From positions 862 through 64,861 of the forward strand of contig CAZWVJ010000008.1 in assembly GCA_964636865.1 (NCBI GenBank): a stretch of 64,000 nt of DNA, given 5' to 3'. Both the position numbers and the translations under genes were made by a program. The notes under the pieces are model-generated. The model was not told the DNA's origin and ran no database searches. It saw only the letters and a list, made by a program, of their open reading frames with translations. Position 1 is the stretch's first letter, and every line of letters begins with the position of its first letter. Source of the DNA: an uncultured Syntrophomonadaceae bacterium (GTDB lineage: Bacteria > Bacillota > Dethiobacteria > DTU022 > PWGO01). Positions 19,815 to 45,910 of the stretch are shown here, one piece after another.

Positions 19815-20150
19815 ATGCCCAGACCCCCGAAAAGACGCAGAGTAGAATTTATGCCCGAGGTTACATATTTTAAACCGGCAGGTGTCCCCTTGCGTGAGTT
19901 AGAAGATAAATCACTTAACATCGAAGAGCTGGAAGCTATACGTTTAAAGGATGTTGAAGGATTGGATCAACAGGATGGAGCTGACAAAATGAATGTATCC
20001 AGAGCTACTTTTCAGAAAGTACTAGTTTCTGCCCGTGCCAAAATTGCCGAAGCATTGGTTTACGGCAAAGCCATTAGGGTTGAGGGAGGAATATATTCTT
20101 ATAGAAACGATGCAGGTAGGCATAGACACGGCCACGGCCACAACAAATAA
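19815..20150 (+). CDS. DUF134 (UPF0251) small DNA-binding protein with His-rich tail
   Basis: [10 protein letters not shown]...YFKPAGVP N-terminus and [10 protein letters not shown]...[15 protein letters not shown]-like core are typical of DUF134. C-terminal HRHGHGH. AAGGAGG RBS. Confidence 0.8.
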
Positions 20151-20884: not shown

Positions 20885-22771
20885 ATGGCTGAAGAAAAAA
20901 TAGTTAAGAGTCAGGAGTTGGAAATATTTAGAAGGTCTACCCTGGGGGAAATTCTTTATACAGCGGTGAGAGTGGAACCTGAAGTGGTAGCTATTTCTTA
21001 CCGTGAACCGGGAAAAGAAAATTTTATCAGCCTTACTTATCTTGATTTGGGGAGAGAGGTAAAGGCTCTGGCAATGGGACTGCTTTACCTGGGAATCCAA
21101 AAAGGTGACAAAATCAGTATTTTGGCCGAAACACGGTACGAATGGCCCCTGGCAGATTTTGCGATTCTTACCACCGGTGGAGTTACCGTCACCATTTACC
21201 CTACTTTATCCCCTTCCTCGGTGGAATATATTATTAATGACTCGGATACCCAGATGCTTTTTGTGGAAGATCAGGAACAGCTGGACAAAGTAATGGAAGT
21301 TTCAGACAAAATATCTCATTTAAAATATATAATTACCATGGAAAAGACAGATAAGCCGTGGAGTAATATTTACACTTTGCAAGAAATCCAGGAAATGGGT
21401 AGAAATTATAATTATGATCCCTTCAAATACGATGAAGTACAGCAGAGCATTCATCCGGATGATTTATGCAGCATTGTTTATTCCAGCGGGACAACAGGTC
21501 AGCCCAAGGGTGTTATGTTATCTCATTGGAACTTCGTCTCTAACCTTTTTGCGCTGAGAGAAGTAGTGCAGTACTCCTCAGGTGATGATATGCTGGTTTT
21601 TTTGCCGTTTGCGCATGTATACATGCGTGTGGTCTATTTTGCCGCCTTGGCGGGTAGGCAAACATGTTACTTCAGCCGACCGGACAGGTTGGCCGAGGAT
21701 CTTCCCGTGGTAAGACCGGTGGTAATGACGGCAGTTCCCCGCCTGTGGGAAAGAGTTTACGACCGTATGGTACAGCGAGTAGAATCTTCCCGCATCACCC
21801 GCCGTCTCATTTTTTACTGGGCAGCCCGCATTGCTCGTGAAATGGGGCAGTATCGGAGCAAAAAAATTGAGCCACCGCCGCGGTTGAAAAGAAAGCACCG
21901 CCTGGCCGAGCGCATTGTCTACAAAAGACTTCGAGCAATGGCAGGGCTGGACCGCCTCAAAACCTGTGTATCGGCCGGCAGTGCCATGCCCAAAGACCTG
22001 GCCTATTTTTATAACGGCATAGGTTTCCCCCTTCTGGAGGGTTACGGATTGACCGAAACTGCCGCCCCGGCGAATATCAATCCTTCGCATGATTTTAGGC
22101 CCGGATCTATCGGCCCACCGTTGCCGGGCGTGGAGCAAAAAATTGCGGAAGACGGTGAAATTTTAATCCGAGGACATAACGTGATGATGGGTTATTACAA
22201 ATTGCCGGACGAAACGAAAGAATCTTTCACTGAGGATGGATGGTTGAAAACCGGCGACATCGGGGAATTTGACGAAGAGGGTTATCTTTATTTTAAAGAA
22301 AGGAAGAAACACCTTCTGGTCTTATCCACGGGCAAAAATGTAGCCCCCCTTCCCATTGAGGACAAACTGAAAGAAAGCCCCTGGGTGGAAGAGGCCGTGG
22401 TGATAGGCGATGATAAGAAGTATGTTTCTGCGTTGATTCAGCCCCAGTTTAGTAAGTTGCTTGATTTCGCCCGGACAAACGCTATTAATTTCGATGAAAA
22501 CCTTACCGAATATGCCCCGGACCAGGCTGGAGAAGAAGTTCCTGTAAAGGTCGACCCGGCTTTGCTTGCTCATGAAAAAGTGCAAGAGATATTCCGGCAG
22601 GCGGTTGAGGAAGCCAACCGCTTTTTCAATGACTTTGAACAGGTTAAAAAATTTCAACTTCTGGATAATGCAATTTCTCAGGAAAGAGGAGAATTAACTC
22701 CTACTTTAAAGATTAAGAGGAACATTATGGCATCTAATTATGGGGAATTAATTGACACATTATATGAGTAA
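20885..22771 (+). CDS. long-chain-type acyl-CoA synthetase (AMP-forming)
   Basis: AMP-binding motifs YSSGTTGQPKGV, EGYGLTE, TGDIG and a C-terminal PTLKIKR. 628 aa. Confidence 0.85.
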   Translation: MAEEKIVKSQELEIFRRSTLGEILYTAVRVEPEVVAISYREPGKENFISLTYLDLGREVKALAMGLLYLGIQKGDKISILAETRYEWPLADFAILTTGGVTVTIYPTLSPSSVEYIINDSDTQMLFVEDQEQLDKVMEVSDKISHLKYIITMEKTDKPWSNIYTLQEIQEMGRNYNYDPFKYDEVQQSIHPDDLCSIVYSSGTTGQPKGVMLSHWNFVSNLFALREVVQYSSGDDMLVFLPFAHVYMRVVYFAALAGRQTCYFSRPDRLAEDLPVVRPVVMTAVPRLWERVYDRMVQRVESSRITRRLIFYWAARIAREMGQYRSKKIEPPPRLKRKHRLAERIVYKRLRAMAGLDRLKTCVSAGSAMPKDLAYFYNGIGFPLLEGYGLTETAAPANINPSHDFRPGSIGPPLPGVEQKIAEDGEILIRGHNVMMGYYKLPDETKESFTEDGWLKTGDIGEFDEEGYLYFKERKKHLLVLSTGKNVAPLPIEDKLKESPWVEEAVVIGDDKKYVSALIQPQFSKLLDFARTNAINFDENLTEYAPDQAGEEVPVKVDPALLAHEKVQEIFRQAVEEANRFFNDFEQVKKFQLLDNAISQERGELTPTLKIKRNIMASNYGELIDTLYE

Positions 22772-23417
22772 AGTCATCTTTCCATAATGTGTTCACATTT
22801 CTCAATTCATGAGGTTTTATTGCTTAAAGTTATTTGTAGGGATGATTTTTATAGAATTACGTCCGAGAAAACCTTAAACTTTAGTCCGAAAAGTCGTCAC
22901 TTTCTTTATGTTCCGGTAATAAAAACGCCAATTCAAGGTACATAAGTATAAAGCATCCCTGGTTTTTTTTAACTAAAAATTTAAAAAAAATAATAAAAAT
23001 GTATTGCTAAAAAATACTTAAAGATATAAAATATTTATAAATTGCATAATATTCAAAAATGGTTGCAATTTCGAAGCTAACGAACATATCTAATTTCTCT
23101 CATTGTTTTGTAATATTTTCAGCTCCTAAATTATCTGCTTAATTATCACTATTAATAATTTTATCAAAGCAAAATTATTTTTAATATTTGCAGCTTAGTT
23201 CTCATAGTTTTCCTTTAATTAAATACTTATAGCGACGTCAGTTATCAGTTGGCAATAAATAAACAGGGGGTGGTATGATTTTTATATCTCCAAATTAATT
23301 ATATCCCCTTATTAAAGTTGCTGTTTTGATGTTTCTCTGAGAAATATTGGAAGTACACGAGGATGTTTTTATGCAACCCGTAATTTGTATTTTTGGAAAG
23401 GAGATAATTGGTTCATT

Positions 23418-24308
23418 ATGAGAGAAAAGCATGTAAGTGAACTTTTGAGAGAAAAGGTAGTTATTAGCTGCGCTTTAACCGGAGGAGCTACCATGAAATA
23501 TCAAAATGAATCGGTGCCTTATACTCCGGAAGAGTTTGCCGAGGAAAGCTACAAGTGTTGGCAGTCGGGCGCTTCTGTGGTGCATATCCATGTTAGAGAT
23601 CCGGACACCGGCATGGCCACAGAGGACATTGATTTAATAAGGCCCACTATAGAAGGCATTAGGGAAAGGTGCCCGGAATTGATTATTAATATGAGTTCGG
23701 CTATCCGCCCCTTCATATCGGCTGAAGAACGCATTTTTCCCATCAAAGAAATGCAACCGGATATGGCTTCTCTAAACACCAATTCCATGAATTTTGCCCT
23801 GGCGGATCATGCTACAGGTGAGATCAAGCTTGAATTTATTTTTGAAAACACTTTTCAAATGCTTTTTGATTTTGCATCAACGATGAGGGAAAACAAAGTA
23901 AAACCGGAATTAGAAGTTTATGATATGAGTGGTCTCTATAACGTTATGTTGGCCAATAAACAAAATATTTTGGATGATCCGTTGCACTTTCAATTTGTCT
24001 TTGGAGTGGCGGGAGGAGTGCCTTTTTCTCCCGGCAATTTAGCCCGCATGTATGAAGTACTTCCCGAAGGATCTTCCTGGTCTGTTTGTGGCGTAGGGCC
24101 TAACCAGATAGCTGCGGCGTATGCGGCCGCCGCTTATGGCGGGCATATACGCGTGGGCTTAGAAGACAACACCCGTATGTATAACCGGGAACTGGCTAAA
24201 GGTAATTATGAACAGGTAGAATGGGCCGTTAAGGTAACCGAACTGTGCGGGCGTGAAGTGGCTACTCCGGTAGAAGCCCGGGATATTTTTAACCTTTACA
24301 GCCGATAA
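23418..24308 (+). CDS. BKACE family (3-keto-5-aminohexanoate cleavage enzyme-like, DUF849) protein
   Basis: VISCALTGG, SGASVVHIHVRD and HIRVGLEDN motifs typical of BKACE TIM-barrel Zn enzymes. The start is uncertain (ATG at 23418 or TTG at 23385). Confidence 0.75.
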   Translation: MREKHVSELLREKVVISCALTGGATMKYQNESVPYTPEEFAEESYKCWQSGASVVHIHVRDPDTGMATEDIDLIRPTIEGIRERCPELIINMSSAIRPFISAEERIFPIKEMQPDMASLNTNSMNFALADHATGEIKLEFIFENTFQMLFDFASTMRENKVKPELEVYDMSGLYNVMLANKQNILDDPLHFQFVFGVAGGVPFSPGNLARMYEVLPEGSSWSVCGVGPNQIAAAYAAAAYGGHIRVGLEDNTRMYNRELAKGNYEQVEWAVKVTELCGREVATPVEARDIFNLYSR

Positions 24309-24368
24309 TGGCCCGGAAAAAAGATACCGGGAAATATTTTTGCTGGCAAATCCAAAGGAGGTAAATAC

Positions 24369-25511
24369 ATGGAAGATCATCCCATTTTTAATGAAGAGCA
24401 CAAAGCCATTAGAAAATCAATTCGCGAGTTTGTGGAAAAAGAACTGGCGCCGTATGCCGAAGAGTGGGAGGAGAATGAAGATTTTCCTTCCTCTGTGTTC
24501 CAGCGCATGGGAGAGTTGGGTTTTTTGGGGCTTCATATGCCCGAAGAATATGGCGGCCAGGGAGGCGATTATCTATCGGGAATTATACTGGCGGAGGAGA
24601 TGATGCGTTGTAATTCCGGGGGACTGGCCATGGCGGTAGGTGTGGTTACCGATATGGTCAGTCCTCTTTTGAACAAAGTGGGTTCTGAGGACATCAAGCA
24701 ACGATTTTTGGCCCCTACCCTGGCGGGGGAAAAAATTGGTTGCCTGGGCATAACCGAACCCGATGCGGGATCTGATGTTGCCTCTATTCGGACCACTGCC
24801 CAGAAAGACGGGGATAACTGGATTATTAACGGGCAAAAGATATTTATAACCAACGGGAACCGGGCTGATTATGCCATTGTAGTGGCTCGGGAACCCGGAT
24901 CCGAAGGGCCTCAGGGAGTTAGCTTGTTTGTTCTGGAAACTGATGATCCGGGATTTTCTGTATCCCGTAAACTGGATAAGGTGGGTATGCGCAGTTCTGA
25001 TACAGCGGAGCTTGCTTTCCAGGACTGTGTAGTGCCTGATGCTAATCGATTGGGAGAAGTCGGCCAGGGTTTTTACAATATCATGTGGGAACTTCAGCCG
25101 GAAAGGCTTTTCGGAGCTATTTCATCGGTAGCCGGAGCCCAGAGGACCTTGGATGCTACCCTTCTGTATGTGAAGGAGAGGAAGCAATTCGGAAGGCCCA
25201 TATTCAAATTTCAGGCCATTCGTCATCGTCTGGCGGAATTGGCCACCGAAATCGAAGCAGCCAGACAGTTGTCATACAATGTGGCCTCCAAGATCAACAT
25301 GGGTGAATTTCCCGCAAAGGAAATATCTATGGCCAAACTATTTGCCTCCAGGGTTTCTTTCAAAGTTGCCGACGAAGCCCTGCAGTTTCACGGCGGTTAC
25401 GGTTATATGATGGAGTATCCCATTCAAAGGGCCTGGCGGGACAGCCGCCTGGCTCGCATTGGCGGCGGGACGGATGAGGTTATGTTGGAGATAATATCCC
25501 GGTCTCTTTAA
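24369..25511 (+). CDS. acyl-CoA dehydrogenase
   Basis: GITEPDAGSD, FITNG and C-terminal GGYGYMMEYPIQRAWRDSR motifs. 380 aa. AAGGAGG RBS. Confidence 0.9.
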   Translation: MEDHPIFNEEHKAIRKSIREFVEKELAPYAEEWEENEDFPSSVFQRMGELGFLGLHMPEEYGGQGGDYLSGIILAEEMMRCNSGGLAMAVGVVTDMVSPLLNKVGSEDIKQRFLAPTLAGEKIGCLGITEPDAGSDVASIRTTAQKDGDNWIINGQKIFITNGNRADYAIVVAREPGSEGPQGVSLFVLETDDPGFSVSRKLDKVGMRSSDTAELAFQDCVVPDANRLGEVGQGFYNIMWELQPERLFGAISSVAGAQRTLDATLLYVKERKQFGRPIFKFQAIRHRLAELATEIEAARQLSYNVASKINMGEFPAKEISMAKLFASRVSFKVADEALQFHGGYGYMMEYPIQRAWRDSRLARIGGGTDEVMLEIISRSL

Positions 25512-25610
25512 TTAAGAATTAGCATCAACGGGAGTAGGGAGGTGAAAAGTTTTTCTTACATGAATCCATTAACTACTTCGTATATTTGACGATCCTAGGA
25601 GGTGATAAGA

Positions 25611-26753
25611 ATGAGTAAAATTGGAATTATTGGTTGCAGTCTTAGTGAGTTTCAGCCGGACATGGAAGATGTCGCCACCGGTCAGATCATTTTTGAAGTA
25701 ACTGAGGGAGTCTTGAAAAATGCGGGTCTGGATATTAAAGATATCGACCAGGTTATTTCTGCTTCTTGTGATACCATAGACGGCGTGTCCATTTCCAACG
25801 CTTTTTCCGCAGAGAACTACGGAGCTTTTATGAAAGAAGAGTCTAAGGTAGAAGAAGACGGGGCCTATGCCATGATGTATGCCTACTACCGTATGCTAAC
25901 GGGGCAGTGGAATAATTGTATAGTAGTGGCACATGGGAAAAATTCAGGTGTGGGGCCGGCTTTTTATGCCAATATGAGTTTTGACCCCCTTTACCTAAGG
26001 CCTTTGGGGCTGGAAGCAACTTCTGCGGCGGCATTGCAAGCCCAGGCCTATTACCGGAAGTATGGTGTCAGGGAAGAAGATACGGCCATGGTGGCTTCCA
26101 AAAACCGGGAAGCGGGAAGTAAAAATCCGCGGACCATGCTTCGTGAAAAAGTTAGCCCTCAGGATGTAATGAATTCTTCTTATGTGGTGGATCCCCTCAA
26201 AAAACTGGAAATTCCTCCGCTAACTGACGGAGCGGCTGCCATTATTCTGGCCCGAGAGGATTTTGCCCGTGGTGTGAAAAATGAACCGGTGTGGATAAAA
26301 GGGATAGGTTTTGCCCAGGACAGCTATTATCCCGGGCACAGAAACCTGGCCTTTTCGGATTCATGTCATGCTGCCGCCCGGATGGCTTATAACAGAGCCG
26401 GGCTCAAGGATCCTGTCAGGGAAGTGGATTTTGCTGAAGTGTATGAAGCGTGTGCTTTTTACGAATTAATGTTAAGTGAAAGCCTGGGTTTTTGCCCGGA
26501 AGGCAAAGGAAAGGAAATGATAGAGGAAGGTAATAGCAAAATAGATGGCAGTTTTCCTATAAATCCTTCGGGTGGAGCTCTTTGTGCCAATCCTATTATG
26601 GTTTCAGGCCTTGTAAGGGTAATAGAAAGCTACTTGCAGCTAACTGGTCAAGCCGGGGATAATCAGGTGCGGCGGAATAATGGAGCAGCTGTGGTACATG
26701 CATCTAGCGGGATGTTTTTGCAATCTAATCTGGTTTCGATATTGTCTATTTAA
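25611..26753 (+). CDS. thiolase-superfamily (SCP2-thiolase-like) protein, non-canonical active site
   Basis: Thiolase-fold length and an NPSGGAL motif. The expected nucleophile Cys, HDCF and GHP motifs read VEEDGAYAMMYAYY, EVYEACAF and CANP instead. The ATG at 25611 follows AGGAGG. Confidence 0.7.
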   Translation: MSKIGIIGCSLSEFQPDMEDVATGQIIFEVTEGVLKNAGLDIKDIDQVISASCDTIDGVSISNAFSAENYGAFMKEESKVEEDGAYAMMYAYYRMLTGQWNNCIVVAHGKNSGVGPAFYANMSFDPLYLRPLGLEATSAAALQAQAYYRKYGVREEDTAMVASKNREAGSKNPRTMLREKVSPQDVMNSSYVVDPLKKLEIPPLTDGAAAIILAREDFARGVKNEPVWIKGIGFAQDSYYPGHRNLAFSDSCHAAARMAYNRAGLKDPVREVDFAEVYEACAFYELMLSESLGFCPEGKGKEMIEEGNSKIDGSFPINPSGGALCANPIMVSGLVRVIESYLQLTGQAGDNQVRRNNGAAVVHASSGMFLQSNLVSILSI

Positions 26754-26779
26754 ACATGCACAGAAAAGGAGGTGGAAAA

Positions 26780-27943
26780 ATGGTTAATAATGTAGGCGTG
26801 GTAGGTATCGGAATGACGGAAAATAAGTCGTTTTGGAACCTAAGCATCCCCGCCCTTTATCGAAAAGGGGCTTTGTCAGCATATGAAGATTCCGGGTTAG
26901 GGCCTGCAGAAATAGATGCAGTAGTTTTCGGTCATTCCCCGGAATATTTTGAAGGAGTTAATCACCCCGAAAAATGGTGCGGCGAAGCCGTGGGGGTAGT
27001 TAACAAACCCCTGTTCCGAATTCATACGGGTGGCACTGTAGGAGGTTCTGCTGCTATTGGGGCTTACTACCTGGTGGCAAGCGGGGAATTTGACGTGGTT
27101 ATGGCCATATCCGGTAACAAGCTAAACGAAACATCTTCCGCTCAAATAGGCCTTTCCACAGTTTATGAACCCCTCATAGCGAGGAGAATGGGTGCGGGAG
27201 CCCCTTCAGCGGTGGCGTTACAGGCTTCTGCCTATTATGCCAAGTACGGATATGACGGAGAATATAGTTTAAAAGTTGCTGTAAAAAACCGGAATAATGC
27301 TGTGAATAACCCCTATGCCCAGCTGAGGATCCCGGACTATAACCTCGAGGGAGCAAGAGAAACTCCTATGTTGAGCTATCCCTTAAGGATGGCGGATATG
27401 TGTCCTACTTCTGATGCGGTTTGTGCTATGATATTTGCGCGGGAAGATAAGGTTAAAGAAATCACCGATAAACCGGCCTGGGTACTTGCAGCGGTATCCA
27501 CGAATGAAGGAGTTACCTATGCGGATAGGGACTGGGCCAAGCCCATCGGGCTGCGGCTTGCCGCGGATATAGCCTACGAGCGGGCCGGTATAAGCAATCC
27601 CCGGAAGGAAATAGATGTGGCTGAGGTTTATGACGCCTTTTCCGTGCAGGAGATGATTTGGTACGAGGGATTAAACTTCTGTGAGTGGGGAGAAGGCGGT
27701 AATCTCCTGGAGAGTGGAGCAACTCATATGGATGGAGATTTACCGGTTAACCCTTCCGGCGGAGTTTTATGTGCTAATTCCATTGGGGCGGCTGCTATGT
27801 TTCGCAAGGCAGAAGCGGCCCTCCAGGTTATGGGCAGAGCGGGTGACAGGCAGGTTCCGGGGGCGCAAATTTCTCTTGGTCATGGATGGGGCGGGGGGAT
27901 TCAGTTTCATACCGTGATGATCTTTTCCAGTAATATGCCTTGA
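26780..27943 (+). CDS. thiolase-superfamily (SCP2-thiolase-like) protein, non-canonical active site
   Basis: NPSGGVL motif and thiolase-like length. The expected catalytic positions read HTGGTVGGSAAIGAYY, EVYDAFSV and CANS. The ATG at 26780 follows AAGGAGGTGG. Confidence 0.7.
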   Translation: MVNNVGVVGIGMTENKSFWNLSIPALYRKGALSAYEDSGLGPAEIDAVVFGHSPEYFEGVNHPEKWCGEAVGVVNKPLFRIHTGGTVGGSAAIGAYYLVASGEFDVVMAISGNKLNETSSAQIGLSTVYEPLIARRMGAGAPSAVALQASAYYAKYGYDGEYSLKVAVKNRNNAVNNPYAQLRIPDYNLEGARETPMLSYPLRMADMCPTSDAVCAMIFAREDKVKEITDKPAWVLAAVSTNEGVTYADRDWAKPIGLRLAADIAYERAGISNPRKEIDVAEVYDAFSVQEMIWYEGLNFCEWGEGGNLLESGATHMDGDLPVNPSGGVLCANSIGAAAMFRKAEAALQVMGRAGDRQVPGAQISLGHGWGGGIQFHTVMIFSSNMP

Positions 27944-27957
27944 GGAGGTGAAAAACT

Positions 27958-28467
27958 ATGACAAAAATATCAAATTGGGATATAACCGTGCCTTACCAGT
28001 GGACACCCGGACCGGTTTTAGGAACTTTTTTGGGAGGCCTGCGGGAAAAAACCATCACCGGTGTAAAATGTAATTCTTGCGGCAAAATATATGTTCCTCC
28101 CCAGGATTTGTGCCGGGACTGCCTGGAAGACATGCAGGTGGAAAATTTTGTGGAAGTCAAGCCGGAAGGCACGGTAGAAGGGTTTGTTAAAATCAGGCAA
28201 AATTTTTTCGGAGAAAGGCCTTCGAAAGAATACCTTAGTGAAAGGATCAGCCCTGCCGATATTGATAAGCATCCTCTGTTATGGTTTCCGGAGACACCTT
28301 ATGTGGTGGCCATGATTAAATTAGACGGGGCGGACACCTGCATGCTGCACTTGGTGAAGGGAGCGGACATGGATAACCTGAAAATAGGTTCTCGAGTGGG
28401 GGCAGTTTGGAAAGAAGAAACCATTGGACATATAATGGACATTGATTGTTTTAAGATAACTGAATGA
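27958..28467 (+). CDS. DUF35 Zn-ribbon/OB-fold protein
   Basis: CNSCGKIYVPPQDLCRDC rubredoxin-like zinc ribbon followed by an OB-fold-like region. GAGGAGGTG RBS. Confidence 0.8.
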   Translation: MTKISNWDITVPYQWTPGPVLGTFLGGLREKTITGVKCNSCGKIYVPPQDLCRDCLEDMQVENFVEVKPEGTVEGFVKIRQNFFGERPSKEYLSERISPADIDKHPLLWFPETPYVVAMIKLDGADTCMLHLVKGADMDNLKIGSRVGAVWKEETIGHIMDIDCFKITE

Positions 28468-28481
28468 AGGGAGGGGGAAAA

Positions 28482-28928
28482 ATGTTCGAGCCTACAAGCA
28501 GGGTTATGCATACCTGGTATGTACCTTACAAGTGGTCTTATGGCCAGCGGGCTACTGAATTTTTAGAGTTGATGAGAAAAGAACAAAAAATCTTTTTTGG
28601 CCGTTGCACCAGTTGCAAAAAGGTTATTATTCCTACAGCTATCTGCGGAAGATGTTTTGCCCCATTGGAAGACGAGTTAGTGCCTTTAAACGATGAAGGG
28701 GTGTTGGAATGTTTTACCGTAGTATATCTTCCTTTTCCCACTCAGCCGGCCGAACCTCCTTATGCCTATGGCTACATCAGGCTGGATGGTTCTTCCAGCA
28801 CCATGCCGCATATTATTGATGAAGTGGATTATGATGATCTGAGAGTGGGCATGAGGGTAAAGGCAGTTTGGAGAGAGGAGCTAAAGGGTGACATTTACGA
28901 TATTAAATATTTCAAGCCGATAGATTAA
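28482..28928 (+). CDS. DUF35 Zn-ribbon/OB-fold protein (second copy)
   Basis: CTSCKKVIIPTAICGRC zinc ribbon followed by an OB-like C-terminus. The ATG at 28482 follows AGGGAGGGGG. Confidence 0.8.
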   Translation: MFEPTSRVMHTWYVPYKWSYGQRATEFLELMRKEQKIFFGRCTSCKKVIIPTAICGRCFAPLEDELVPLNDEGVLECFTVVYLPFPTQPAEPPYAYGYIRLDGSSSTMPHIIDEVDYDDLRVGMRVKAVWREELKGDIYDIKYFKPID

Positions 28929-29276: not shown

Positions 29277-30095
29277 TTATAACTCTAATATTCTTTGCGC
29301 ATTTGTGGAAAGCAACTTTTCTCTGGTGCTTTCCTTTAAGTTGAGCTTATTCAGTTCATCCAATACTCTTTTTCTGGGTAGGAGGGGATGGTCAGAGCCA
29401 AATAAAGCTTTATTAGCCAAAAGGGAATCCATTAGATTTATTACCGGTGCGGGAATATATTGAGGCGCCCACCCCGCGATATTAAAATAAACGTTGAAGT
29501 TTTTTTGCGCTACAGCTAAAGCTTCGTAAAACCAGGGATAACCGAAGTGAGCCATAATAAAGTTAACTTCGGGAAAATCGATTGCTATTTCATCTATAAA
29601 TTCAGGTTTGTTGTATTTTATCTTGCACCCTAAATGAAAATGAGTTCCGGTATGTAGTAACACCGGTATTTTTAAGGCACTTGCTTTTTCATAGATGGGA
29701 TACATTAGCTTATCGTTAGGACAAATTTCAATAAGGTGGGGGATAAACTTTAATCCTTTAAGCCCCAATTCATTGACTGCATATTCCAAATCTCGGAGGG
29801 CAATTTTCCCCTTGTGGGGGTCTACGGAGGCAAAACCGATTAACCTTTCTGGATGCTCCTGAACTGATTCTGCTACCAATTCATTGGATATTTTATAACC
29901 TTTTTTAGTTTCGGCATCAATAGCTACTACTACTGATTTGTCCACTCCCGCATTATCCATGTCTGCCAGGGTATCTTCTACATTTCCCTTAAAAAAAGAG
30001 GCGTACCCCATCATGTCCAATCCTTCAAGTTCTCCCTTTTGGACCATTTCAACGAACTTAGGGGTAAATAATTGTGCATGGGTATCAATTATCAT
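29277..30095 (-). CDS. amidohydrolase-2 family (PF04909-like) metal-dependent hydrolase
   Basis: N-terminal IIDTHAQ metal-binding motif. Internal HTGTH and MAHFG. Late FGSDHP motif. 272 aa. GGGAGGG RBS. Confidence 0.8.
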   Translation of the reverse strand: MIIDTHAQLFTPKFVEMVQKGELEGLDMMGYASFFKGNVEDTLADMDNAGVDKSVVVAIDAETKKGYKISNELVAESVQEHPERLIGFASVDPHKGKIALRDLEYAVNELGLKGLKFIPHLIEICPNDKLMYPIYEKASALKIPVLLHTGTHFHLGCKIKYNKPEFIDEIAIDFPEVNFIMAHFGYPWFYEALAVAQKNFNVYFNIAGWAPQYIPAPVINLMDSLLANKALFGSDHPLLPRKRVLDELNKLNLKESTREKLLSTNAQRILEL

Positions 30096-30853: not shown

Positions 30854-31384
30854 ATGAGTAATAAAAGCTATAAAGATGTTGAGCCCGGTGATAAGGCGGC
30901 CCAAAAAGCTATTGTGACGGCACTTTTATTTTTTATGGGAAGGGCTATGCCGGCAATTGCCCAGAAAGATGAAGAGGTAAAGAAAGAAATAGATCAATGG
31001 GAAGAAGGTTTTTCTTTTTTGTTTGAAATATTACCTGATGGACCTTACCTGGCCATGGAAAAGAAAGAGGGTATGCTACAATTTGTTGGTATGGAAAGAA
31101 TAAATGCTGATTTAATTGTTTCTATCAAAAACATAGATTCGGCATTTAAAATGTTTACTACCCAACTCAGCAGTCATAATGCTTATGCTCAACACCGCAT
31201 GAGTCTTCAAGGGGAAAATGACAAAGCTCTGCAATTAATTCGCTGCCTAAATATAGTACAGTTTCTTTTGTTCCCCGGATTTCTTTCCAAGAGAATTTTA
31301 AAGCGCCAACCGGAAATGTCAAAGCAAAGATGGCTAACTCGTTTGTATGCTTACTTGATTGCTGTGCCGTTAGGGCGGCCGTAA
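30854..31384 (+). CDS. hypothetical protein, possibly SCP2-like lipid-binding fold
   Basis: Good RBS (AAGGAGGTG). ADLIVSIKNIDSAFKMF...MSLQGENDKALQLIRCLN loosely resembles the SCP2 C-terminal pattern. The assignment is tentative. Confidence 0.35.
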   Translation: MSNKSYKDVEPGDKAAQKAIVTALLFFMGRAMPAIAQKDEEVKKEIDQWEEGFSFLFEILPDGPYLAMEKKEGMLQFVGMERINADLIVSIKNIDSAFKMFTTQLSSHNAYAQHRMSLQGENDKALQLIRCLNIVQFLLFPGFLSKRILKRQPEMSKQRWLTRLYAYLIAVPLGRP

Positions 31385-31433: not shown

Positions 31434-32621
31434 ATGATACCTTCTTATTATGAATATTATAACCCGGTGAAAATTATTTCCGGTCATGATGCTTTGGAAA
31501 GTGTAGGCCATGAGCTCAAACTTTTAGGAGCCAAAAGGCCTATATTGATTACTTTCAAGACTGCTGTAAAATTAGGGCTAGATAAACAATTAATTGATTC
31601 CTTCGGTGGTTATGATGTCACTATAGGAGCAATTTACAGTGAAACTCCTCCTGATTCTTCGAATCTGGTGGTAAATGAAATAGCCAGAATGTACAATGAA
31701 AATAATTGTGACTCTATAATTGCCCTGGGTGGAGGCTCGGTGCTGGATACTGCCAAAGGGGTTAACATTGTTGTTACCGAAGGTGCCCATGATTTGATGA
31801 ATTATGTGGGGGCTGAACATTTGACCAATAGGATGAAACCCCTTATTGCTATTCCTGCAACGTCAGGCACCGGTTCGGAAGTAACGCTGGCTGCAGTAAT
31901 CAACAACGTAGAAAAGGGGCGTAAAATGGCTTTTACTTCTTATAGACTAATTCCCGATGTAGCCATTTTGGATAGCCGTGTTACTTTATCTGTGCCGCCC
32001 CGACTCACTGCCGGTAGTGGCATGGATGCCTTAACTCACGCAGTGGAGGCTTATTCATGTATTCAAAAAAATCCTGTTAGTGATGCTTATGCCATGTCGG
32101 CAATTAGCATGCTTCGTGATTATTTGGTAAAGACACTGGAGAAACCTAAAGACAAAGATGCACGTCTGGCTACAGCAAATGCTTCTTTGTTGGCGGGTTG
32201 CGCATTTTCAAATTCTATGTGCGGCATTGTTCATGCTATGGGTCATGCCGCCGGGGCTATCGGGCATATACCTCACGGGGAAGCCATGGCTATTTTGCTG
32301 CCTTTTGGGATGGAGTATAACATGGATCTTTGTAAAGATTATTATGCCGAACTGCTTTTGCCTTTAGCGGGCCCTGAAGTCTATGCTTCTACTCCTGCTA
32401 ATAAGAGGGCTGCCAAAGCAGTAGATACAGTAAGGCAATTAAACAAAAAACTTAATGAATTAAGTGGAATGCCCATTTCCTTAGAAGAAGCCGGTGTTTC
32501 TAAAGGTCAGCTTAAATCAATTTCTGAGGCGGCTATTGATGATGGAGCTATTAATTTTAATCCTAAGGATGCTGATTCCAATGACATTCTAAAAATAGTG
32601 GAGAAAGCTTATAGAAGATAA
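31434..32621 (+). CDS. iron-containing (group III) alcohol dehydrogenase
   Basis: GGGSVLDTAKG NAD-binding motif. Metal-ligand histidines in DALTHAVEAY and VHAMGHAAGAIGHIPHG. 395 aa. Confidence 0.9.
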   Translation: MIPSYYEYYNPVKIISGHDALESVGHELKLLGAKRPILITFKTAVKLGLDKQLIDSFGGYDVTIGAIYSETPPDSSNLVVNEIARMYNENNCDSIIALGGGSVLDTAKGVNIVVTEGAHDLMNYVGAEHLTNRMKPLIAIPATSGTGSEVTLAAVINNVEKGRKMAFTSYRLIPDVAILDSRVTLSVPPRLTAGSGMDALTHAVEAYSCIQKNPVSDAYAMSAISMLRDYLVKTLEKPKDKDARLATANASLLAGCAFSNSMCGIVHAMGHAAGAIGHIPHGEAMAILLPFGMEYNMDLCKDYYAELLLPLAGPEVYASTPANKRAAKAVDTVRQLNKKLNELSGMPISLEEAGVSKGQLKSISEAAIDDGAINFNPKDADSNDILKIVEKAYRR

Positions 32622-39596: not shown

Positions 39597-39640
39597 CCAT
39601 TCTGTTCATCTGCGGAATATAAATGGAAGGAGGTTGCTCA

Positions 39641-42322
39641 TTGCATTCAATAACAGTTACTATTAATCAACGAGTGGTAAGCGGCCATGCCGACATGACA
39701 ATTCTGGAATTAGCCCGGGAATCGGGCATATATATTCCCACACTTTGTGATGACCCAAATTTAAAGCCCGTGGGGGCATGCAGGCTTTGTTTGGTGGAAA
39801 ACGATAACACCGGTGCTTTAATGGCATCTTGTGTTACCACTGTAGCTTCGGATATGGTTATCAATACCGACTCTCCCAAGGTGCGACAATATCGCAAAAA
39901 TATCCTTAAGCTAATGCTGGCCAGCCACCCTGAAGCTTGTTTGATTTGCGATAAAGGTAACCATTGTAAATTGCGCCAAGTTGCTTCGGATTTAGGAGTG
40001 GGTTTAAATGAAATGGAAAAAATACCGCGTTTTGCAAGCGTAGAAGAATTAAACCCTTTTTTAACGAGAGACAATAGTAAATGTATATTATGCGGCAAAT
40101 GCATTAGGGCATGCCAGGAAATTGTAGTAGAAGGCGCTATTGATTATTACCAAAGAGGTTTCATTACCAAGCCTGCTACTTTCAATGATTATCCCCTTGA
40201 GCATTCAGAATGTACTTTTTGTGGAACCTGTGTGGCTATGTGCCCAACCGGCGCGTTAACGGAGAAAGATAAGCCGTATCAAGGAACCGGCAGGAAAACC
40301 GTGCGAACTACCTGTTCTTTTTGCGGGTGTGGGTGCCCTATATTGCTGGAAATAAAAGATAGCCATATAGTAAGAGCTTTACCGGCTGAGGGTAAGATCC
40401 CTCACAAGGGTGCCCTTTGTGTGCGGGGAAGTTACGGATTCGAATATATCTATAGCGAAGATAGATTAACCAAACCCCTGGTAAAGGGCAAAGATGGCTT
40501 TGAAGAAGTTTCCTGGGAAGAGGCTTTAACTGCTGCAGTTGCCGGCTTAAAGAAAGTTAAAGAAAATTACGGTCCATCTGATCTGGCAGTTTTGGGTTCT
40601 TCCAAGTGTACTAATGAAGAAAATTATCTTTTACAGAGATTTGCCCGGACTGTATTGGAAACAAATAATATTGATAACGGCAGCAGTCTTTATAATGCTG
40701 CAACCCGTGCAGGGTTGGCAGAAACTATTGGATTTTTAAGTGCTACAAACTTATTGGAAGCACTTGAACAAGCGGAAATAATTTTAGTGGTTGGCGCAGA
40801 TCCTACCGTAACTGCTCCTCAGGTGGCCTATGCATTAAAACGGGCTATCAGGCAGCACCATGCAAAATTAATCCTTATTGATTCTTCTCCTACAAAACTT
40901 GCCTCTTTTGCTCATCAGAGTATTTATCCCTACCCGGAAAGCGAGCTGGCATTGTTAAACAGCCTGTCGAAGATTATTATTGACGAAGGTTTATTAAATA
41001 GTGAATACCTGAGTCGCCAAACAGAAGGTTTTGCAGACTTTGAGGCAGCACTTGAAAACTTTTCTCCCGAAGATACAGCGGAAATTACGGGAGTTAATGC
41101 CATGGAAATCCGTAATGCCGCCCATCTTTATGCAGGGGCAGAAAAATCTGTAATAGTTTTTGGAGCAAGAGCTACCGGCACTGTAAATGGTGCGGAAAAT
41201 ATTATGGCAATTGCCAACCTGGCCCTTCTTACCAATAATGTGTGGGGCCGTGGTTGTGGGATCTATCCTCTTCAAAAAGAAAATAATGCCCAGGGTGCCG
41301 GTGAAATGGGTTCCTTGCCTAATTACTTACCCGGCTTTCGTCCACTTGGGGAAGTAACGGCTCGCCGAAATTATGAAGGCCTTTGGCAAAAAGACCTACC
41401 TTCCGTACCGGGATTAAGTGCATTGGAAATACTTTCTCAGGGCCATGAGGGGTCGTTAAAAGGCCTTTACATTGTGGGTGAAAATCCTGCTGCCGGGTTT
41501 CCCCAGTCTAAACTGGTTGAAGATACCCTGAAAGGATTAGAGTTCTTGGTAGTTCAAGATATGTTTTTAACGGAAACTGCCAAACATGCCGATGTAGTTT
41601 TACCCGCAGCGAGTTTTGCCGAAAAGGATGGCTCTTTTACTAATTTTGAAGGAAGAATAGGCTGGCTGCAACAAGCTTTTCCACCGAAAGGAGAAAGCCT
41701 GGCCGACTGGGATATTATTCTGCGTTTGGCTCGGCAATGGGGAGATCCTTTACCCTATTTTTCATTACAAGAAGTGATGAACGAAATTGAGGAATATGTG
41801 CCTTTTTATGAAGGGTATATTTACCCGGAAAAAAGATTGGGGGAGAAATGTTCTTACCTGGAAGAACGCCGCAATAGAATTTTTCAATCTTTAACGGGGT
41901 TTCCATGCTTTTCTATTCCCAATTATACTCCTCCATTACCTGAAAGAAATAGGAAATATCCGTTTTATTTAACAGTGGAGAAGGTGCTTCCTCATTTTGG
42001 CAGTGGAGTAAGAAGTGATAAAGCTCGGCGTTTGAAAAGTTTCTACCCCGAGCCTTATTTAAGTGTTTCCCCGGGAGATGCCCATGAATTGTCTTTGGTG
42101 TCCGGTGAACATGTTTATGTGAAATCTCCCTTTGCGCAAATAGAACTGGCTGTAAAAGTTTCTAATGGGATGCCCTCTGGAACATTATCTGTGCCTGTTT
42201 CTATTTCGGGAGTGATGGACCTTTTTGGTGCCGCTACCGTTTCGGAAAAGGATAATAACCGATGGGATTTTAGTTTGGCAGGTTGTTACGTTAATTTAGA
42301 AAGGGTGAGTCCAAATGAGTGA
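39641..42322 (+). CDS. formate dehydrogenase alpha / NuoG-like molybdopterin-fold Fe-S protein lacking the catalytic Sec/Cys-His pair
   Basis: N-terminal 2Fe-2S (CRLCLVE). HPEACLICDKGNHCKLR. Two 4Fe-4S motifs (CILCGKCIRAC, CTFCGTCVAMCP). MopB cluster motif TCSFCGCGC...LCVRG. Active-site stretch NNIDNGSSLYNAATRAGL. The TTG at 39641 lies 7 nt after GGAGG. The ATG at 39623 is the alternative start. Confidence 0.8.
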   Translation: MHSITVTINQRVVSGHADMTILELARESGIYIPTLCDDPNLKPVGACRLCLVENDNTGALMASCVTTVASDMVINTDSPKVRQYRKNILKLMLASHPEACLICDKGNHCKLRQVASDLGVGLNEMEKIPRFASVEELNPFLTRDNSKCILCGKCIRACQEIVVEGAIDYYQRGFITKPATFNDYPLEHSECTFCGTCVAMCPTGALTEKDKPYQGTGRKTVRTTCSFCGCGCPILLEIKDSHIVRALPAEGKIPHKGALCVRGSYGFEYIYSEDRLTKPLVKGKDGFEEVSWEEALTAAVAGLKKVKENYGPSDLAVLGSSKCTNEENYLLQRFARTVLETNNIDNGSSLYNAATRAGLAETIGFLSATNLLEALEQAEIILVVGADPTVTAPQVAYALKRAIRQHHAKLILIDSSPTKLASFAHQSIYPYPESELALLNSLSKIIIDEGLLNSEYLSRQTEGFADFEAALENFSPEDTAEITGVNAMEIRNAAHLYAGAEKSVIVFGARATGTVNGAENIMAIANLALLTNNVWGRGCGIYPLQKENNAQGAGEMGSLPNYLPGFRPLGEVTARRNYEGLWQKDLPSVPGLSALEILSQGHEGSLKGLYIVGENPAAGFPQSKLVEDTLKGLEFLVVQDMFLTETAKHADVVLPAASFAEKDGSFTNFEGRIGWLQQAFPPKGESLADWDIILRLARQWGDPLPYFSLQEVMNEIEEYVPFYEGYIYPEKRLGEKCSYLEERRNRIFQSLTGFPCFSIPNYTPPLPERNRKYPFYLTVEKVLPHFGSGVRSDKARRLKSFYPEPYLSVSPGDAHELSLVSGEHVYVKSPFAQIELAVKVSNGMPSGTLSVPVSISGVMDLFGAATVSEKDNNRWDFSLAGCYVNLERVSPNE

Positions 42323-42800
42323 AAAACTAAAAAAACCCGAAATAGATATGGAACAACTTACGCACATAGTAAACAGTTATAAGCATCAAAAATGGTCATT
42401 AATCCCTTTGGTGCAGGATATTCAAGATGAATTCGGATTTATTCCCCCTGAATCCATACCCGTTATTGCCGATGCTTTAAACCTTTTTCCCAGTGAAGTG
42501 CAGGGAGTAGTTTCTTTTTATGCACAGCTGTATACAGAGCCAAGGGGTAGAAACATAGTTCGCGTTTGCCGGGGAACGGCTTGTCATGTTCGTGGGGGCA
42601 AAACAGTGCTAAAACTGGTGAAAAAACAGCTGGGATTACAAGAAAACCAAACTTCTGAAGACCTGGAATATACTTTAGAAACAGTAGCATGCCTGGGTGT
42701 TTGTGCTCTTTCTCCCAGCATGGTTATAAATAACCAGGTATATGGAAATATGAACCCCAAAAAAATTAAGCTGTTGTTTAAGGGGGAGGAGGGTAGTTGA
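42315..42800 (+). CDS. NuoE/HydC-like 2Fe-2S thioredoxin-fold subunit
   Basis: VCRGTACHVRG...ETVACLGVCALSPSMVIN matches the NuoE [2Fe-2S] pattern. The start overlaps the upstream stop. Confidence 0.85.
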   Translation: MSEKLKKPEIDMEQLTHIVNSYKHQKWSLIPLVQDIQDEFGFIPPESIPVIADALNLFPSEVQGVVSFYAQLYTEPRGRNIVRVCRGTACHVRGGKTVLKLVKKQLGLQENQTSEDLEYTLETVACLGVCALSPSMVINNQVYGNMNPKKIKLLFKGEEGS

Positions 42801-42802
42801 TT

Positions 42803-45800: not shown

Positions 45801-45895
45801 GAAAAAAAAGCTTTCAAGAAACAGAATTGTGCTTTTCAGAAGAAGAAGCAGTTCAGGAATCGAAACGGTGCCTCAGATGTGATCTGGAAAGATGA
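42803..45895 (+). CDS. NuoF/HydB-like FMN/NADH subunit fused to a GltD/NfnB-like FAD/NAD(P)H oxidoreductase
   Basis: N-terminal 2Fe-2S module (VCQGTGC...GCHGFCEQGP). NuoF core (GLRGRGGAGFPTARKW, CNADEGDPGAF, ESCGKCTPCRLG). GltD-type NPFPAICGRICHHPCEMRCRR. Dinucleotide folds VVGAGPCGLSCAYFL and VIVIGGGNVALD. Acidic tail EEDEEEGSEDLEEELEEE. Confidence 0.85.
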   Translation: MQKRTVFVCQGTGCFSSGSQALYDHLLAEVKQLQIQDTEVDFTGCHGFCEQGPIVVVEPEGIFYTRVQPEDASEIALSHLQKNIPVERLYYRDPLSGEAIPYYKDVNFYQKQQRVILENCGHINPENIEHSVTKGKYRGLERALLNLSPQQVIEDIKASGLRGRGGAGFPTARKWEFCFNAPGPKKYVICNADEGDPGAFMDRSILEADPHAVVEGLTIAGYAVGADEGYIYVRAEYPLAVKRLRMAIKEALDKGFLGKNIMDSGFNFTLNIKEGAGSFVCGEETALIASIESRRGMPKPRPPFPAQSGLDGKPTVINNVKSLAAVSAIMRRGADWFASMGTDKSRGTVVFALTGKVANSGLVEVEAGTPLSSIIFDIGGGIPRGKNFKAVQTGGPSGGCIPAPYMDTPVEFENLARLGSIMGSGGMVVLDESTCMVEIARYFLSFTQSESCGKCTPCRLGTRQMLEILTRITQGLGRDGDIEALYNIAKTVKEGSLCGLGQTCPNPVLTTLDYFRKEYEMHIREKKCQAAVCDALMISPCQHTCPVGVDVPRYVEAISRGAYLESVDIIRERNPFPAICGRICHHPCEMRCRRGELDDSLAIRALKRFSGDWYFDNIQELPPPAHFERLYPQNIAVVGAGPCGLSCAYFLAQMGYGVIIFEALPVGGGMLSVGIPEFRLPEKVLEEEINYIQKCGVEIKYNTPINVNFTIEDLKQSGYDAVFIAAGAQKSQQIGIPGEIEDLEGFYYGLRFLRDVKIGKRVSIGKKVIVIGGGNVALDTARTAVRMGAEQVEIFYRRTEEQMPVSEFEYKEALDEGVNVNFLVSPTRIVSSNWKVTGIECIKMQLGEPGSDGRRRPVPVSGTEFFAPADTVFASVGQAPDLSFLPSDSALERSRMETLVVDENSLSTNVPGVFAGGDFVTGPDMVVEAIAAGRRGALAIDKYFKKDPSRVLMYDIPKSVTAGKEEDEEEGSEDLEEELEEETWQPQFRPEIPQLSVPIRKKSFQETELCFSEEEAVQESKRCLRCDLER

Positions 45896-45910
45896 AAAGG
45901 AGGGATAAAT

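Follow-up and report, generated by a model that had tools for sequence, protein, structure and literature searches.

The window analyzed here, a 64-kb stretch of contig CAZWVJ010000008.1 from an uncultured Syntrophomonadaceae bacterium, carries a set of four co-directional genes that encode two thiolase-fold proteins (T1 and T2) followed by two DUF35 proteins (DUFa and DUFb):

25611..26753, + strand: T1, a Cys-less SCP2-type thiolase-fold protein of 380 aa (Pfam Thiolase_C_1, 1.2e-31)
26780..27943, + strand: T2, a Cys-less SCP2-type thiolase-fold protein of 387 aa (Pfam Thiolase_C_1)
27958..28467, + strand: DUFa, a DUF35 protein (C4 zinc ribbon and OB fold) of 169 aa (Pfam zf-ChsH2 and OB_ChsH2_C)
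28482..28928, + strand: DUFb, a second DUF35 protein of 148 aa (Pfam OB_ChsH2_C, 1.3e-16, and zf-ChsH2)

The genes are tightly packed, with intergenic gaps of 26, 14 and 14 nt, and each ATG is preceded at a distance of 6-8 nt by a GGAGG ribosome-binding site, which for the T1 start codon at 25611 reads AGGAGGTG. Scans for promoters, terminators and inverted repeats around the operon gave results at chance level, and Rfam had no match in the 64-kb window. T1 and T2 share 31% identity and have more than 2000 relatives each, and proteins of both types carry the automatic database name acetyl-CoA C-acetyltransferase.

DUFa and DUFb are true zinc-ribbon/OB-fold DUF35 proteins, each with a CxxC...CxxC pattern (Cys38/41/52/55 in DUFa, read from the sequence, and Cys42/45/55/58 in DUFb), both Pfam domains and an adjoining thiolase-fold gene. 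PDB searches matched DUFa to 3irb (4e-11) and 6esq_E, and DUFb to 3irb, 6esq_E, BbsA (7pxp_A) and ChsH2-DUF35 (6ok1_B); by name, the small proteins match SSO2064, archaeal DUF35, BbsA and ChsH2-DUF35. The two are 33% identical, and the OB domain of DUFa features a ~22-residue insertion compared with DUFb. An earlier reading of this stretch from its letters alone (the sequence-only reading) had proposed two DUF35 partners, and the Pfam domains, C4 ribbons and PDB relatives bear this out.

An AlphaFold (AF2) model of T2 (pLDDT 90.4, pTM 0.93) superposed by Foldseek on the archaeal DUF35-bound thiolase (6esq/6et9) with a TM score of 0.93, and also on SCP2 thiolase, BbsB, PhlC, Ltp2 (6ok1) and Sal (9myr). 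The N-terminal half of T1, used as a single sequence, found no match in the PDB at E<=1; it is too divergent, and a family profile was needed. The closest relative of T1 with a solved structure is ST0096 (4yzo), and its top NCBIfam matches (PRK06066, PRK06065, PRK08313 and PRK07937) all lie under their cutoffs.

HMMER alignment of T2 to the zebrafish SCP2 thiolase 6hsj placed Gly85 (codon 27032-27034) opposite the nucleophilic Cys, Tyr284-Asp-Ala286-Phe (Tyr284, 27629-27631; Ala286, 27635-27637) on the His-Asp-Cys-Phe (HDCF) motif, and Asn333 (27776-27778) on the His of the GHP motif. Trypanosomatid SCP2 thiolases as the reference gave the same assignments. The nucleophile loop of T1 (ESKVEEDGAYAMMYAY) has no Cys anywhere, and the T1-family profile, which aligns full length to true thiolases, pairs the ACA of the archaeal thiolase with a gap. 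In a joint T1/T2 alignment, the nucleophile position of T1 is taken by Gly84, HDCF corresponds to Tyr278-Glu-Ala-Cys281 and the GHP His to Asn327; Cys281 of this YEAC motif occupies the Phe position, not the acid/base position, and is found in 1/120 relatives.

Conservation was assessed with 120 relatives of T1, 120 relatives of T2 and a wider set of 85 proteins from genomic loci that includes actinobacteria and archaea. A Cys at the nucleophile position was found in 0/120 T1 relatives, 0/120 T2 relatives and 0/85 locus-derived T2 relatives. Loss of the triad is family-wide and is not a chance feature of one sequence. With neither a nucleophilic Cys, nor the HDCF His and Cys, nor the GHP His in these alignments, a canonical SCP2-type thiolase is excluded for both T1 and T2. 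The sequence-only reading had claimed that both proteins lack the thiolase catalytic residues and retain the NPSGG core; HMMER, profile and joint alignments agree on the former without recovering the Cys/His/Cys triad, and the core is kept in both.

The two thiolase-fold proteins are unequally conserved, T1 being the faster-evolving one. Among its 120 relatives, the nucleophile loop of T2 is nearly frozen (R80-x-H82-T83-G84-G85-T-V-G88), Tyr284, Phe287 and Asn333 are each found in 120/120, and position 286 is Ala (114/120) or Pro, the latter being the residue present in actinobacteria. In the wider set, Gly85, Tyr266, Tyr284, Asn333, Arg342, Glu345 and Gln349 are retained in 85/85, Cys208 of the CPTSD motif in 84/85, and position 80 is always basic (R67/K18 of 85). 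Tyr266, Cys208, Glu345 and Gln349 also occur in true SCP2 thiolases and are probably structural. The corresponding sites of T1 drift: for the HDCF His position the residue counts are Y54/S34/T13/H8/C5 of 120 and Y46/H29/S8 of 85, and the GHP position varies between N, H and D across the family. Near-invariant positions number 32 in T1 versus 65 in T2, with a mean identity of 45% versus 57% (85-protein set). The non-conserved Tyr and the halved number of near-invariant positions make T1 look like a non-catalytic partner. Hence T2 is probably the catalytic subunit (Ltp3-like position) and T1 probably a degenerate, non-catalytic structural partner (Ltp4-like position). A DUF35 fusion was suspected in long T1 homologues (P0019, P0022 and P0023, 496-519 aa), but the extension proved to be a Lys/Ala-rich basic tail; this Lys/Ala/Arg-rich, histone-H1-like C-terminal tail spans ~115-135 residues without a Pfam match.

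Two enzymes provide a chemical template for T2. In TcLtp2, Tyr294 of the YDHF motif is the base, His296 contributes to the oxyanion hole and Tyr344 is the acid, whereas CtSal uses Tyr302 and Cys304 of a YDCY motif, with Gly at the nucleophile position and Gln352 replacing Tyr344; both motifs are counterparts of HDCF, and the Tyr is essential in both characterized thiolase-fold aldolases (PMC12329534). T2 residues 276-331 align with TcLtp2 (6ok1) residues 286-341 over an equal span without net gap, so that Tyr284 matches Tyr294, a correspondence read from the coordinate spans of the alignment table and not from a printed residue-level alignment. The earlier suggestion that both window proteins fit the Ltp2 precedent by having Tyr in place of the HDCF His thus holds for T2, in which this Tyr is invariant, but not for T1, in which it is not conserved.

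We compiled related loci from a T2-profile scan of one genome per species (80 loci) together with metagenomic loci, and located the parts by tblastn with the window proteins. T1, T2 and two DUF35 domains are complete in 76/84 non-redundant loci, and in most of the incomplete ones a part is cut off by a contig end. This module spans at least six bacterial phyla and the Asgard archaea, including Bacillota, Thermodesulfobacteriota, Spirochaetota, Actinomycetota and Myxococcota. Bacterial hosts include Syntrophomonadaceae, Clostridia, Thermodesulfobacteriota, Leptospiraceae and other Spirochaetia, Hydrogenedentota, Dehalococcoidia, Acidobacteria and Myxococcota, as well as many actinobacteria (Streptomyces, Actinomadura, Mycobacteriales and Acidimicrobiia); the Asgard hosts are Promethearchaeota, Hermodarchaeota and Jordarchaeum. 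T2 is up to 83% identical to its nearest homologues in other metagenomes and ~45% identical to those of Asgard archaea, and the Syntrophomonadaceae metagenome-assembled genome (MAG) B1Sed10_75 is 97% identical to the window in a module gene. The occurrence of the module in syntrophic Firmicutes, sulfate reducers, spirochaetes and Asgard archaea implies that its chemistry is not steroid-specific. The 2+2 arrangement had not been recognized as characterized by the sequence-only reading, and the literature searched indeed yielded no biochemistry; the arrangement itself, however, is widespread and has a genetic precedent in actinobacteria.

Gene fusions tie the components of the module to one another and to other proteins. 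The two DUF35 domains are fused in tandem in Acidobacteria, in Streptomyces and in locus L091. On a Spirochaetaceae contig (L009, 10773-13052), a 759-aa protein that combines a complete AMP-forming acyl-CoA synthetase with a C-terminal DUF35 OB domain, and is the orthologue of DUFb, directly follows T1, T2 and the first DUF35, which links substrate activation to the thiolase-fold complex. Another module DUF35 (L007, 4527-5378) features a C-terminal SCP2 sterol-transfer domain; this mirrors eukaryotic SCPx, in which a thiolase is joined to SCP2, but here SCP2 sits on the DUF35 partner. Two side-by-side T1-T2-DUF35 copies were observed at L022 795-4226 and L048 3302-9629, in a Hermodarchaeota MAG and a deltaproteobacterial MAG; such doubling suggests substrate-specialized paralogues.

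The actinobacterial loci connect the module to Ltp3 and Ltp4. In Streptomyces atratus the gene order is crotonase, tandem DUF35 (315 aa), a 350-aa protein in the T1 position that scores 567.8 bits on NCBIfam PRK07937 (cutoff 419), and a 388-aa protein in the T2 position that scores 715 bits on PRK08313 (cutoff 514); actinobacterial module proteins reach 683-715 bits on the latter. T2 itself scores 375.4 bits on PRK08313, which is under the cutoff but makes it the best family by 138 bits (the next scores 237). T1 scores 207.9 bits on PRK07937, under the cutoff of 419 and slightly lower than on PRK06066, PRK06065 and PRK08313. In Mycobacterium tuberculosis the order is Rv3520c (F420 oxidoreductase), Rv3521 (conserved hypothetical), ltp4 (Rv3522) and ltp3 (Rv3523), and a luciferase-like oxidoreductase follows the module in Acidobacteria too. 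Synteny, NCBIfam membership and gene sizes suggest Ltp3 as the counterpart of T2, Ltp4 as that of T1 and Rv3521 as that of DUFa and DUFb combined. Genetics indicated that ltp3 and ltp4 encode aldol-lyases needed for C24-branched sterol side chains, according to the account of Wilbrink et al. 2012 given in PMC6593523.

The following genes surround the module in the window:

20885..22771, + strand: AMP-forming long-chain-type acyl-CoA synthetase (Pfam AMP-binding, 1.5e-76; FadD11-like, under cutoff)
23418..24308, + strand: BKACE-family β-keto acid cleavage enzyme (Pfam BKACE, 9e-94)
24369..25511, + strand: acyl-CoA dehydrogenase (three acyl-CoA dehydrogenase Pfam domains), 60 nt past BKACE and 99 nt before T1
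29277..30095, - strand: Amidohydrolase_2-family hydrolase, decarboxylase or hydratase, convergent (Pfam Amidohydro_2, 2.2e-40)
30854..31384, + strand: SCP2-like small protein of 176 aa (Pfam SCP2 at E=0.056 alone), 50 nt upstream of the next gene
31434..32621, + strand: iron-containing alcohol dehydrogenase (Pfam Fe-ADH and ADH_Fe_C)

BKACE enzymes convert a β-keto acid and acetyl-CoA into an acyl-CoA and acetoacetate. The window member lies under the cutoffs of all named NCBIfam equivalog families (Kce 256/382, triacetate lyase 217/430, 3-oxoadipate type 202/350). Presumably the acyl-CoA synthetase activates the substrate; it is possible that the iron-containing alcohol dehydrogenase handles an aldehyde product, and the amidohydrolase is possibly an accessory gene of the module, near which 8/84 loci, all in other phyla, carry a homologue. 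Crotonase-type enoyl-CoA hydratases are the most frequent neighbours (56/87 loci) and are directly upstream in actinobacteria; acyl-CoA synthetases occur in 46/84 and acyl-CoA dehydrogenases in 24/84 loci. This set of dehydrogenase, hydratase and lyase follows the same logic as in Ltp2 and Sal, and the crotonase, synthetase and dehydrogenase neighbours fit a hydratase/aldolase arrangement.

BKACE adjoins the module in 11/84 loci, which derive from Bacillota (77% identity), Asgard archaea (eight loci, up to 51-53%) and a proteobacterial MAG (33%). In a 76%-identical Bacillota relative (L004), the order BKACE-T1-T2-DUFa-DUFb-acyl-CoA synthetase stands behind a TetR-MaoC regulator. An Asgard locus (L026) combines acyl-CoA dehydrogenase, BKACE, acyl-CoA synthetase and the module with a dienoyl-CoA-reductase-like flavoprotein, enoyl-CoA hydratase, aldehyde:ferredoxin oxidoreductase, iron-containing alcohol dehydrogenase and SCP2, and the last two lie together beside the module in six Asgard loci. 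On a 3.17-Mb contig (L091, 3102-21164), a fusion of this dehydrogenase with SCP2 accompanies a T1/T2/tandem-DUF35 module and a further thiolase-thiolase set that is bordered by DUF35 genes. The same locus encodes two acyl-CoA dehydrogenases, an acyl-CoA synthetase, an enoyl-CoA hydratase, BKACE and a B12-dependent methylmalonyl-CoA-mutase-like pair, which hints at branched or quaternary carbon skeletons. Another locus (L092, 3504-21158) presents two HGD-D and two BcrAD/BadFG genes (benzoyl-CoA reductase/2-hydroxyacyl-CoA dehydratase type) and a ferredoxin ahead of the module, and three enoyl-CoA hydratase genes, an SDR gene and five acyl-CoA dehydrogenase genes after it, and looks like a cluster for anaerobic ring or alicyclic acid degradation. 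Overall, these neighbours fit a lyase whose products are acetyl-CoA and either a lipophilic aldehyde, as with Sal, or a β-keto acid that BKACE could re-activate, but do not thereby identify the substrate.

The 176-aa protein belongs to a family of ~390 representatives, of which 9/40 sampled members match Pfam SCP2 (best 4.3e-6), and an 807-aa member (P0368) fuses its domain to an aldehyde:ferredoxin oxidoreductase. A single-sequence AlphaFold prediction of the 176-aa protein gave a low-confidence model (pLDDT 39.7). These features suggest a lipid or aldehyde/alcohol carrier dedicated to aldehyde/alcohol oxidoreductases.

Several further features of the window were noted. The 646-nt gap between the acyl-CoA synthetase and BKACE genes (22772-23417) contains no convincing open reading frame, Rfam match or inverted repeat. 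A DUF134 gene (19815-20150), which precedes the acyl-CoA synthetase gene by 735 nt and keeps this place in the 97%-identical MAG, encodes a predicted DNA-binding protein that could possibly regulate the operon. GC content is 0.48-0.49 over the acyl-CoA dehydrogenase, T1 and T2 genes (24001-28000) versus 0.36-0.42 in the flanking 2-kb bins; together with the identity of BKACE to the Asgard copies (up to 51-53%), this may be a sign that the operon was horizontally acquired. A cluster at 39623-47460 encodes a molybdopterin formate-dehydrogenase-like protein with a NuoG-type N-terminus, a NuoE-like 2Fe-2S protein, a 1032-aa fusion of NuoF-like and pyridine-nucleotide-disulfide-oxidoreductase parts, and MetV/MetF-type methylene-tetrahydrofolate reductase genes, and resembles an electron-bifurcating Wood-Ljungdahl module. 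These genes and the 97%-identical Syntrophomonadaceae MAG make the earlier assignment of the host as a strict-anaerobe Firmicute reasonable.

From these data, we infer a heteromeric complex of the four proteins in which T2 would act as a Tyr-based retro-aldolase (a β-hydroxyacyl-CoA lyase) and not as a thiolase, a proposal to which we give somewhat better than an even chance. By analogy with solved (thiolase-like)2(DUF35)2 complexes, the core would be a T1-T2 thiolase-fold heterodimer with one DUF35 protein per subunit. Tyr284 of T2, at the position of the Ltp2/Sal base, is proposed to deprotonate the 3-hydroxyl of a 3-hydroxyacyl-CoA, and cleavage of the C2-C3 bond would yield acetyl-CoA (or propionyl-CoA) and an aldehyde or ketone. 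The thioester enolate could be stabilized by Asn333 at the GHP His position and by backbone amides, and would then be protonated by a donor other than the Ltp2 and Sal acids. T1 would serve as a structural partner that shapes the pocket, leaving a single active site per dimer, and the two different DUF35 proteins would act as scaffolds that probably tether pathway partners such as the acyl-CoA synthetase. In such a pathway, the synthetase, the acyl-CoA dehydrogenase and an enoyl-CoA hydratase encoded elsewhere in the genome would act in turn ahead of T1T2, and BKACE and the SCP2-like/alcohol dehydrogenase pair would process a β-keto acid or lipophilic aldehyde product. The invariant Gly of T2 at the nucleophile position, as in CtSal, counts in favour of an aldolase.

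Several observations weigh against this proposal. By sequence, T2 resembles true thiolases more than it does either Ltp2 or Sal, with HMMER bit scores of 142 for zebrafish SCP2 thiolase, 127 for archaeal thiolase, 86 for Sal and 61 for Ltp2, which leaves the assignment as an aldolase resting on one Tyr and on gene context. Both known proton donors are missing, since Sal Cys304, like Ltp2 His296, corresponds to Ala286, and Ltp2 Tyr344 to Asn333, and no alternative invariant acid was identified in T2; these active-site assignments derive from sequence alignment and not from model coordinates. The 64-kb window contains neither an enoyl-CoA hydratase gene nor one for a MaoC hydratase. The co-occurrence counts are not independent, because the loci were chosen by T2 similarity and many are from close Streptomyces. 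The equation of PRK08313 with Ltp3 and PRK07937 with Ltp4 was not confirmed by a named sequence, as the homologue search gave generic names only, and no published enzymology or structure was found in the literature searched for any module member, including Ltp3 and Ltp4. The earlier suggestion of an Ltp2-like aldolase rather than a thiolase is thus sustained insofar as T2 is no canonical thiolase and has the base Tyr, but T2 is not of the Ltp2 family; it may work like Ltp2 and Sal, yet would be a member of neither family.

Other chemistry at the T2 site was considered, such as decarboxylation of malonyl- or β-carboxyacyl-CoA, hydrolysis or isomerization, which could feed or use BKACE. TbSLP, a Cys-less protein with Tyr at the HDCF His position, slowly decarboxylates malonyl-CoA; an aldolase role has been put forward for it, and its real function is described as unsettled (PMC12329534). 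A carboxylate on the substrate could be held by the basic residue at T2 position 80, and BKACE, which handles β-keto acids, co-occurs with the module in three lineages. However, the most recurrent partner is a hydratase, which fits a hydratase and lyase pair, enzymes that handle aldehydes recur nearby, and the sole genetic data on the family, as far as relayed by the citing paper, indicate aldol cleavage; we consider such a reaction unlikely. It is quite unlikely that T1 and T2 are both pseudoenzymes that form, with the DUF35 proteins, a non-catalytic scaffold or substrate carrier for the acyl-CoA synthetase, acyl-CoA dehydrogenase, BKACE and others. All canonical catalytic residues are lost and fusions of DUF35 with acyl-CoA synthetase and with SCP2 exist. 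DUF35 proteins are moreover documented scaffolds that recruit HMG-CoA synthase and PhlA (PMC12329534) or, in Sulfolobus, ketoacyl-CoA reductase and dehydratase (KT/DUF35 preprint). Against this stand the 65 near-invariant positions of T2, which include R80, H82, T83, G84, G85, Y284, N333 and H368 on four active-site loops, and a conservation across domains of life (83%, and ~45% to Asgard) that is high for a pure scaffold.

If T1 and T2 were both active aldolases, each heterodimer would contain two sites, perhaps for two different intermediates. In the T1 of the window, Tyr does replace the HDCF His and Asn the GHP His, and Asp83 (118/120) and Tyr90 (116/120) in its former nucleophile loop are strongly kept in the closer family. 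More than half of the close relatives nevertheless have Ser, Thr, His or Cys instead of Tyr278, the wider set, actinobacteria included, does not keep Asp83 and Tyr90, and the lower mean identity and halved near-invariant positions of T1 argue in the same direction, making two active subunits very unlikely. A thiolase or Claisen enzyme that dispenses with an enzyme thiol, for instance by direct attack of CoA on a 3-oxoacyl-CoA, is scarcely credible: the fold, the NPSGG core, the CPTSD motif and the database name would agree with it, but no relative has the nucleophile, the acid/base Cys or either His, the database names were assigned automatically, and CtSal, which carries the same Gly, reportedly cannot carry out thiolysis (PMC12329534). 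A PhlABC/MucABC-type Friedel-Crafts acyltransferase was also considered and ruled out, as it needs a canonical Cys88 and a KAS III-like partner, both of which are absent.

Should the retro-aldolase proposal be correct, T2 would provide a third active-site solution for thiolase-fold aldolases, with a Tyr base and neither known acid, and the complex would be the first heteromeric thiolase-fold aldolase, composed of one live and one dead subunit with a dedicated DUF35 protein each. It would also offer a biochemical handle on the long-uncharacterized Ltp3 and Ltp4 of the mycobacterial cholesterol region. The findings also correct thousands of automatic acetyl-CoA C-acetyltransferase annotations, and the company of BKACE, acyl-CoA synthetase, SCP2, iron-containing alcohol dehydrogenase and aldehyde:ferredoxin oxidoreductase points to an unrecognized anoxic route for the breakdown of lipids or branched acids. 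A tentative and unlikely extension is that the module is the lyase of an undescribed β-oxidation bypass in anaerobic Bacteria and Asgard archaea. Following dehydrogenation and hydration, the live/dead aldolase would cleave a 3-hydroxyacyl-CoA for which oxidation to the 3-oxo form is impossible or unnecessary, candidates being 3-alkyl-branched or carboxylated substrates, into acetyl-CoA and a lipophilic aldehyde, a ketone or a β-keto acid. BKACE would re-activate the β-keto acid to an acyl-CoA without ATP, and an SCP2-linked alcohol dehydrogenase or aldehyde:ferredoxin oxidoreductase would take the aldehyde; Ltp3/Ltp4 would then be a specialized branch of an older system.

To our knowledge, thiolase-fold aldolases are known only from two characterized homodimeric steroid enzymes, Ltp2 and Sal. 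TcLtp2-ChsH2(DUF35) (6ok1), the steroid C3 side-chain aldolase, resembles T2 in its thiolase fold without catalytic cysteines, its DUF35 partner and its Tyr at the HDCF His position; the Foldseek TM score is 0.85, sequence similarity is only 61 bits, and His296 and the acid Tyr344 contrast with Ala286 and Asn333 in T2. Ltp2 is moreover a homodimer whose DUF35 lies inside the MaoC hydratase ChsH2, whereas two thiolase-fold genes and stand-alone DUF35 genes are present here. CtSal-Shy(DUF35) (9myr), the bile-acid C5 side-chain aldolase, shares with T2 the Gly at the nucleophile position, a Tyr base in a Y-D-x-aromatic motif, an amide at the GHP His position (Gln352 versus Asn333) and a DUF35 partner. 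Its essential acid Cys304 (YDCY) is Ala in T2, the score is 86 bits, Sal is homodimeric, and its DUF35 partner has a C3H zinc site whereas DUFa and DUFb are both C4. The aldehyde product of CtSal is taken up by a downstream enzyme, and both Sal and Ltp2 are flanked by DUF35 (PMC12329534). Among the 89 loci searched, none contained an Ltp2/Sal-like gene with a YD[HC][FY] motif.

The archaeal DUF35-bound thiolases are the best structural match of T2 and share the α2β2-type thiolase and DUF35 architecture reported for the Sulfolobus KT/DUF35 complex (preprint), but they are homodimeric and keep Cys/His/Cys, machinery of which T1 and T2 have none. ST0096, which among solved structures is the top match of the T1 profile (E=1.7e-65), retains HD and GHP, unlike T1; in the alignments, ST0096 and Sphaerobacter 4u4e likewise have no Cys in the nucleophile loop. 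TbSLP (5ab4) features a YDCF motif, and its function, like those of ST0096 and 4u4e, is unresolved. None of these three is described as belonging to a heteromeric pair that has two DUF35 partners. Literature searches on BKACE with DUF35, on Ltp3/Ltp4 biochemistry and on anaerobic thiolase-like aldolases gave nothing relevant apart from the Sal paper and the Sulfolobus preprint.

The closest counterpart is the actinobacterial Ltp3/Ltp4 module, and its four-part architecture is present in the window: two DUF35 domains, and a less conserved thiolase-fold gene followed by a conserved one. The actinobacterial counterparts of T2 share the invariant Gly85, Tyr266, Tyr284, Asn333, Arg342, Glu345 and Gln349, and Cys208 (84/85), and hydratase, acyl-CoA synthetase and acyl-CoA dehydrogenase are neighbours in Ltp3/Ltp4-type loci as well. 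The HDCF-site motif is Y-D-A-F in the T2 of the window but mostly Y-V-P-F in actinobacteria, T1 has 380 aa here versus ~350 aa there, and the order is T1-T2-DUF-DUF with separate DUF35 genes here versus DUF-DUF-T1-T2. The window derives from a strict anaerobe in which no steroid genes were seen, and BKACE and the alcohol dehydrogenase/SCP2 pair are partners unlike those of the actinobacterial Ltp3/Ltp4. The anaerobic and archaeal branch with BKACE, SCP2, iron-containing alcohol dehydrogenase and aldehyde:ferredoxin oxidoreductase partners is undescribed in the literature searched, whereas its architecture is precedented genetically in actinobacteria; on sequence grounds, the window proteins represent a separate, anaerobe-centred branch of this shared four-part module.

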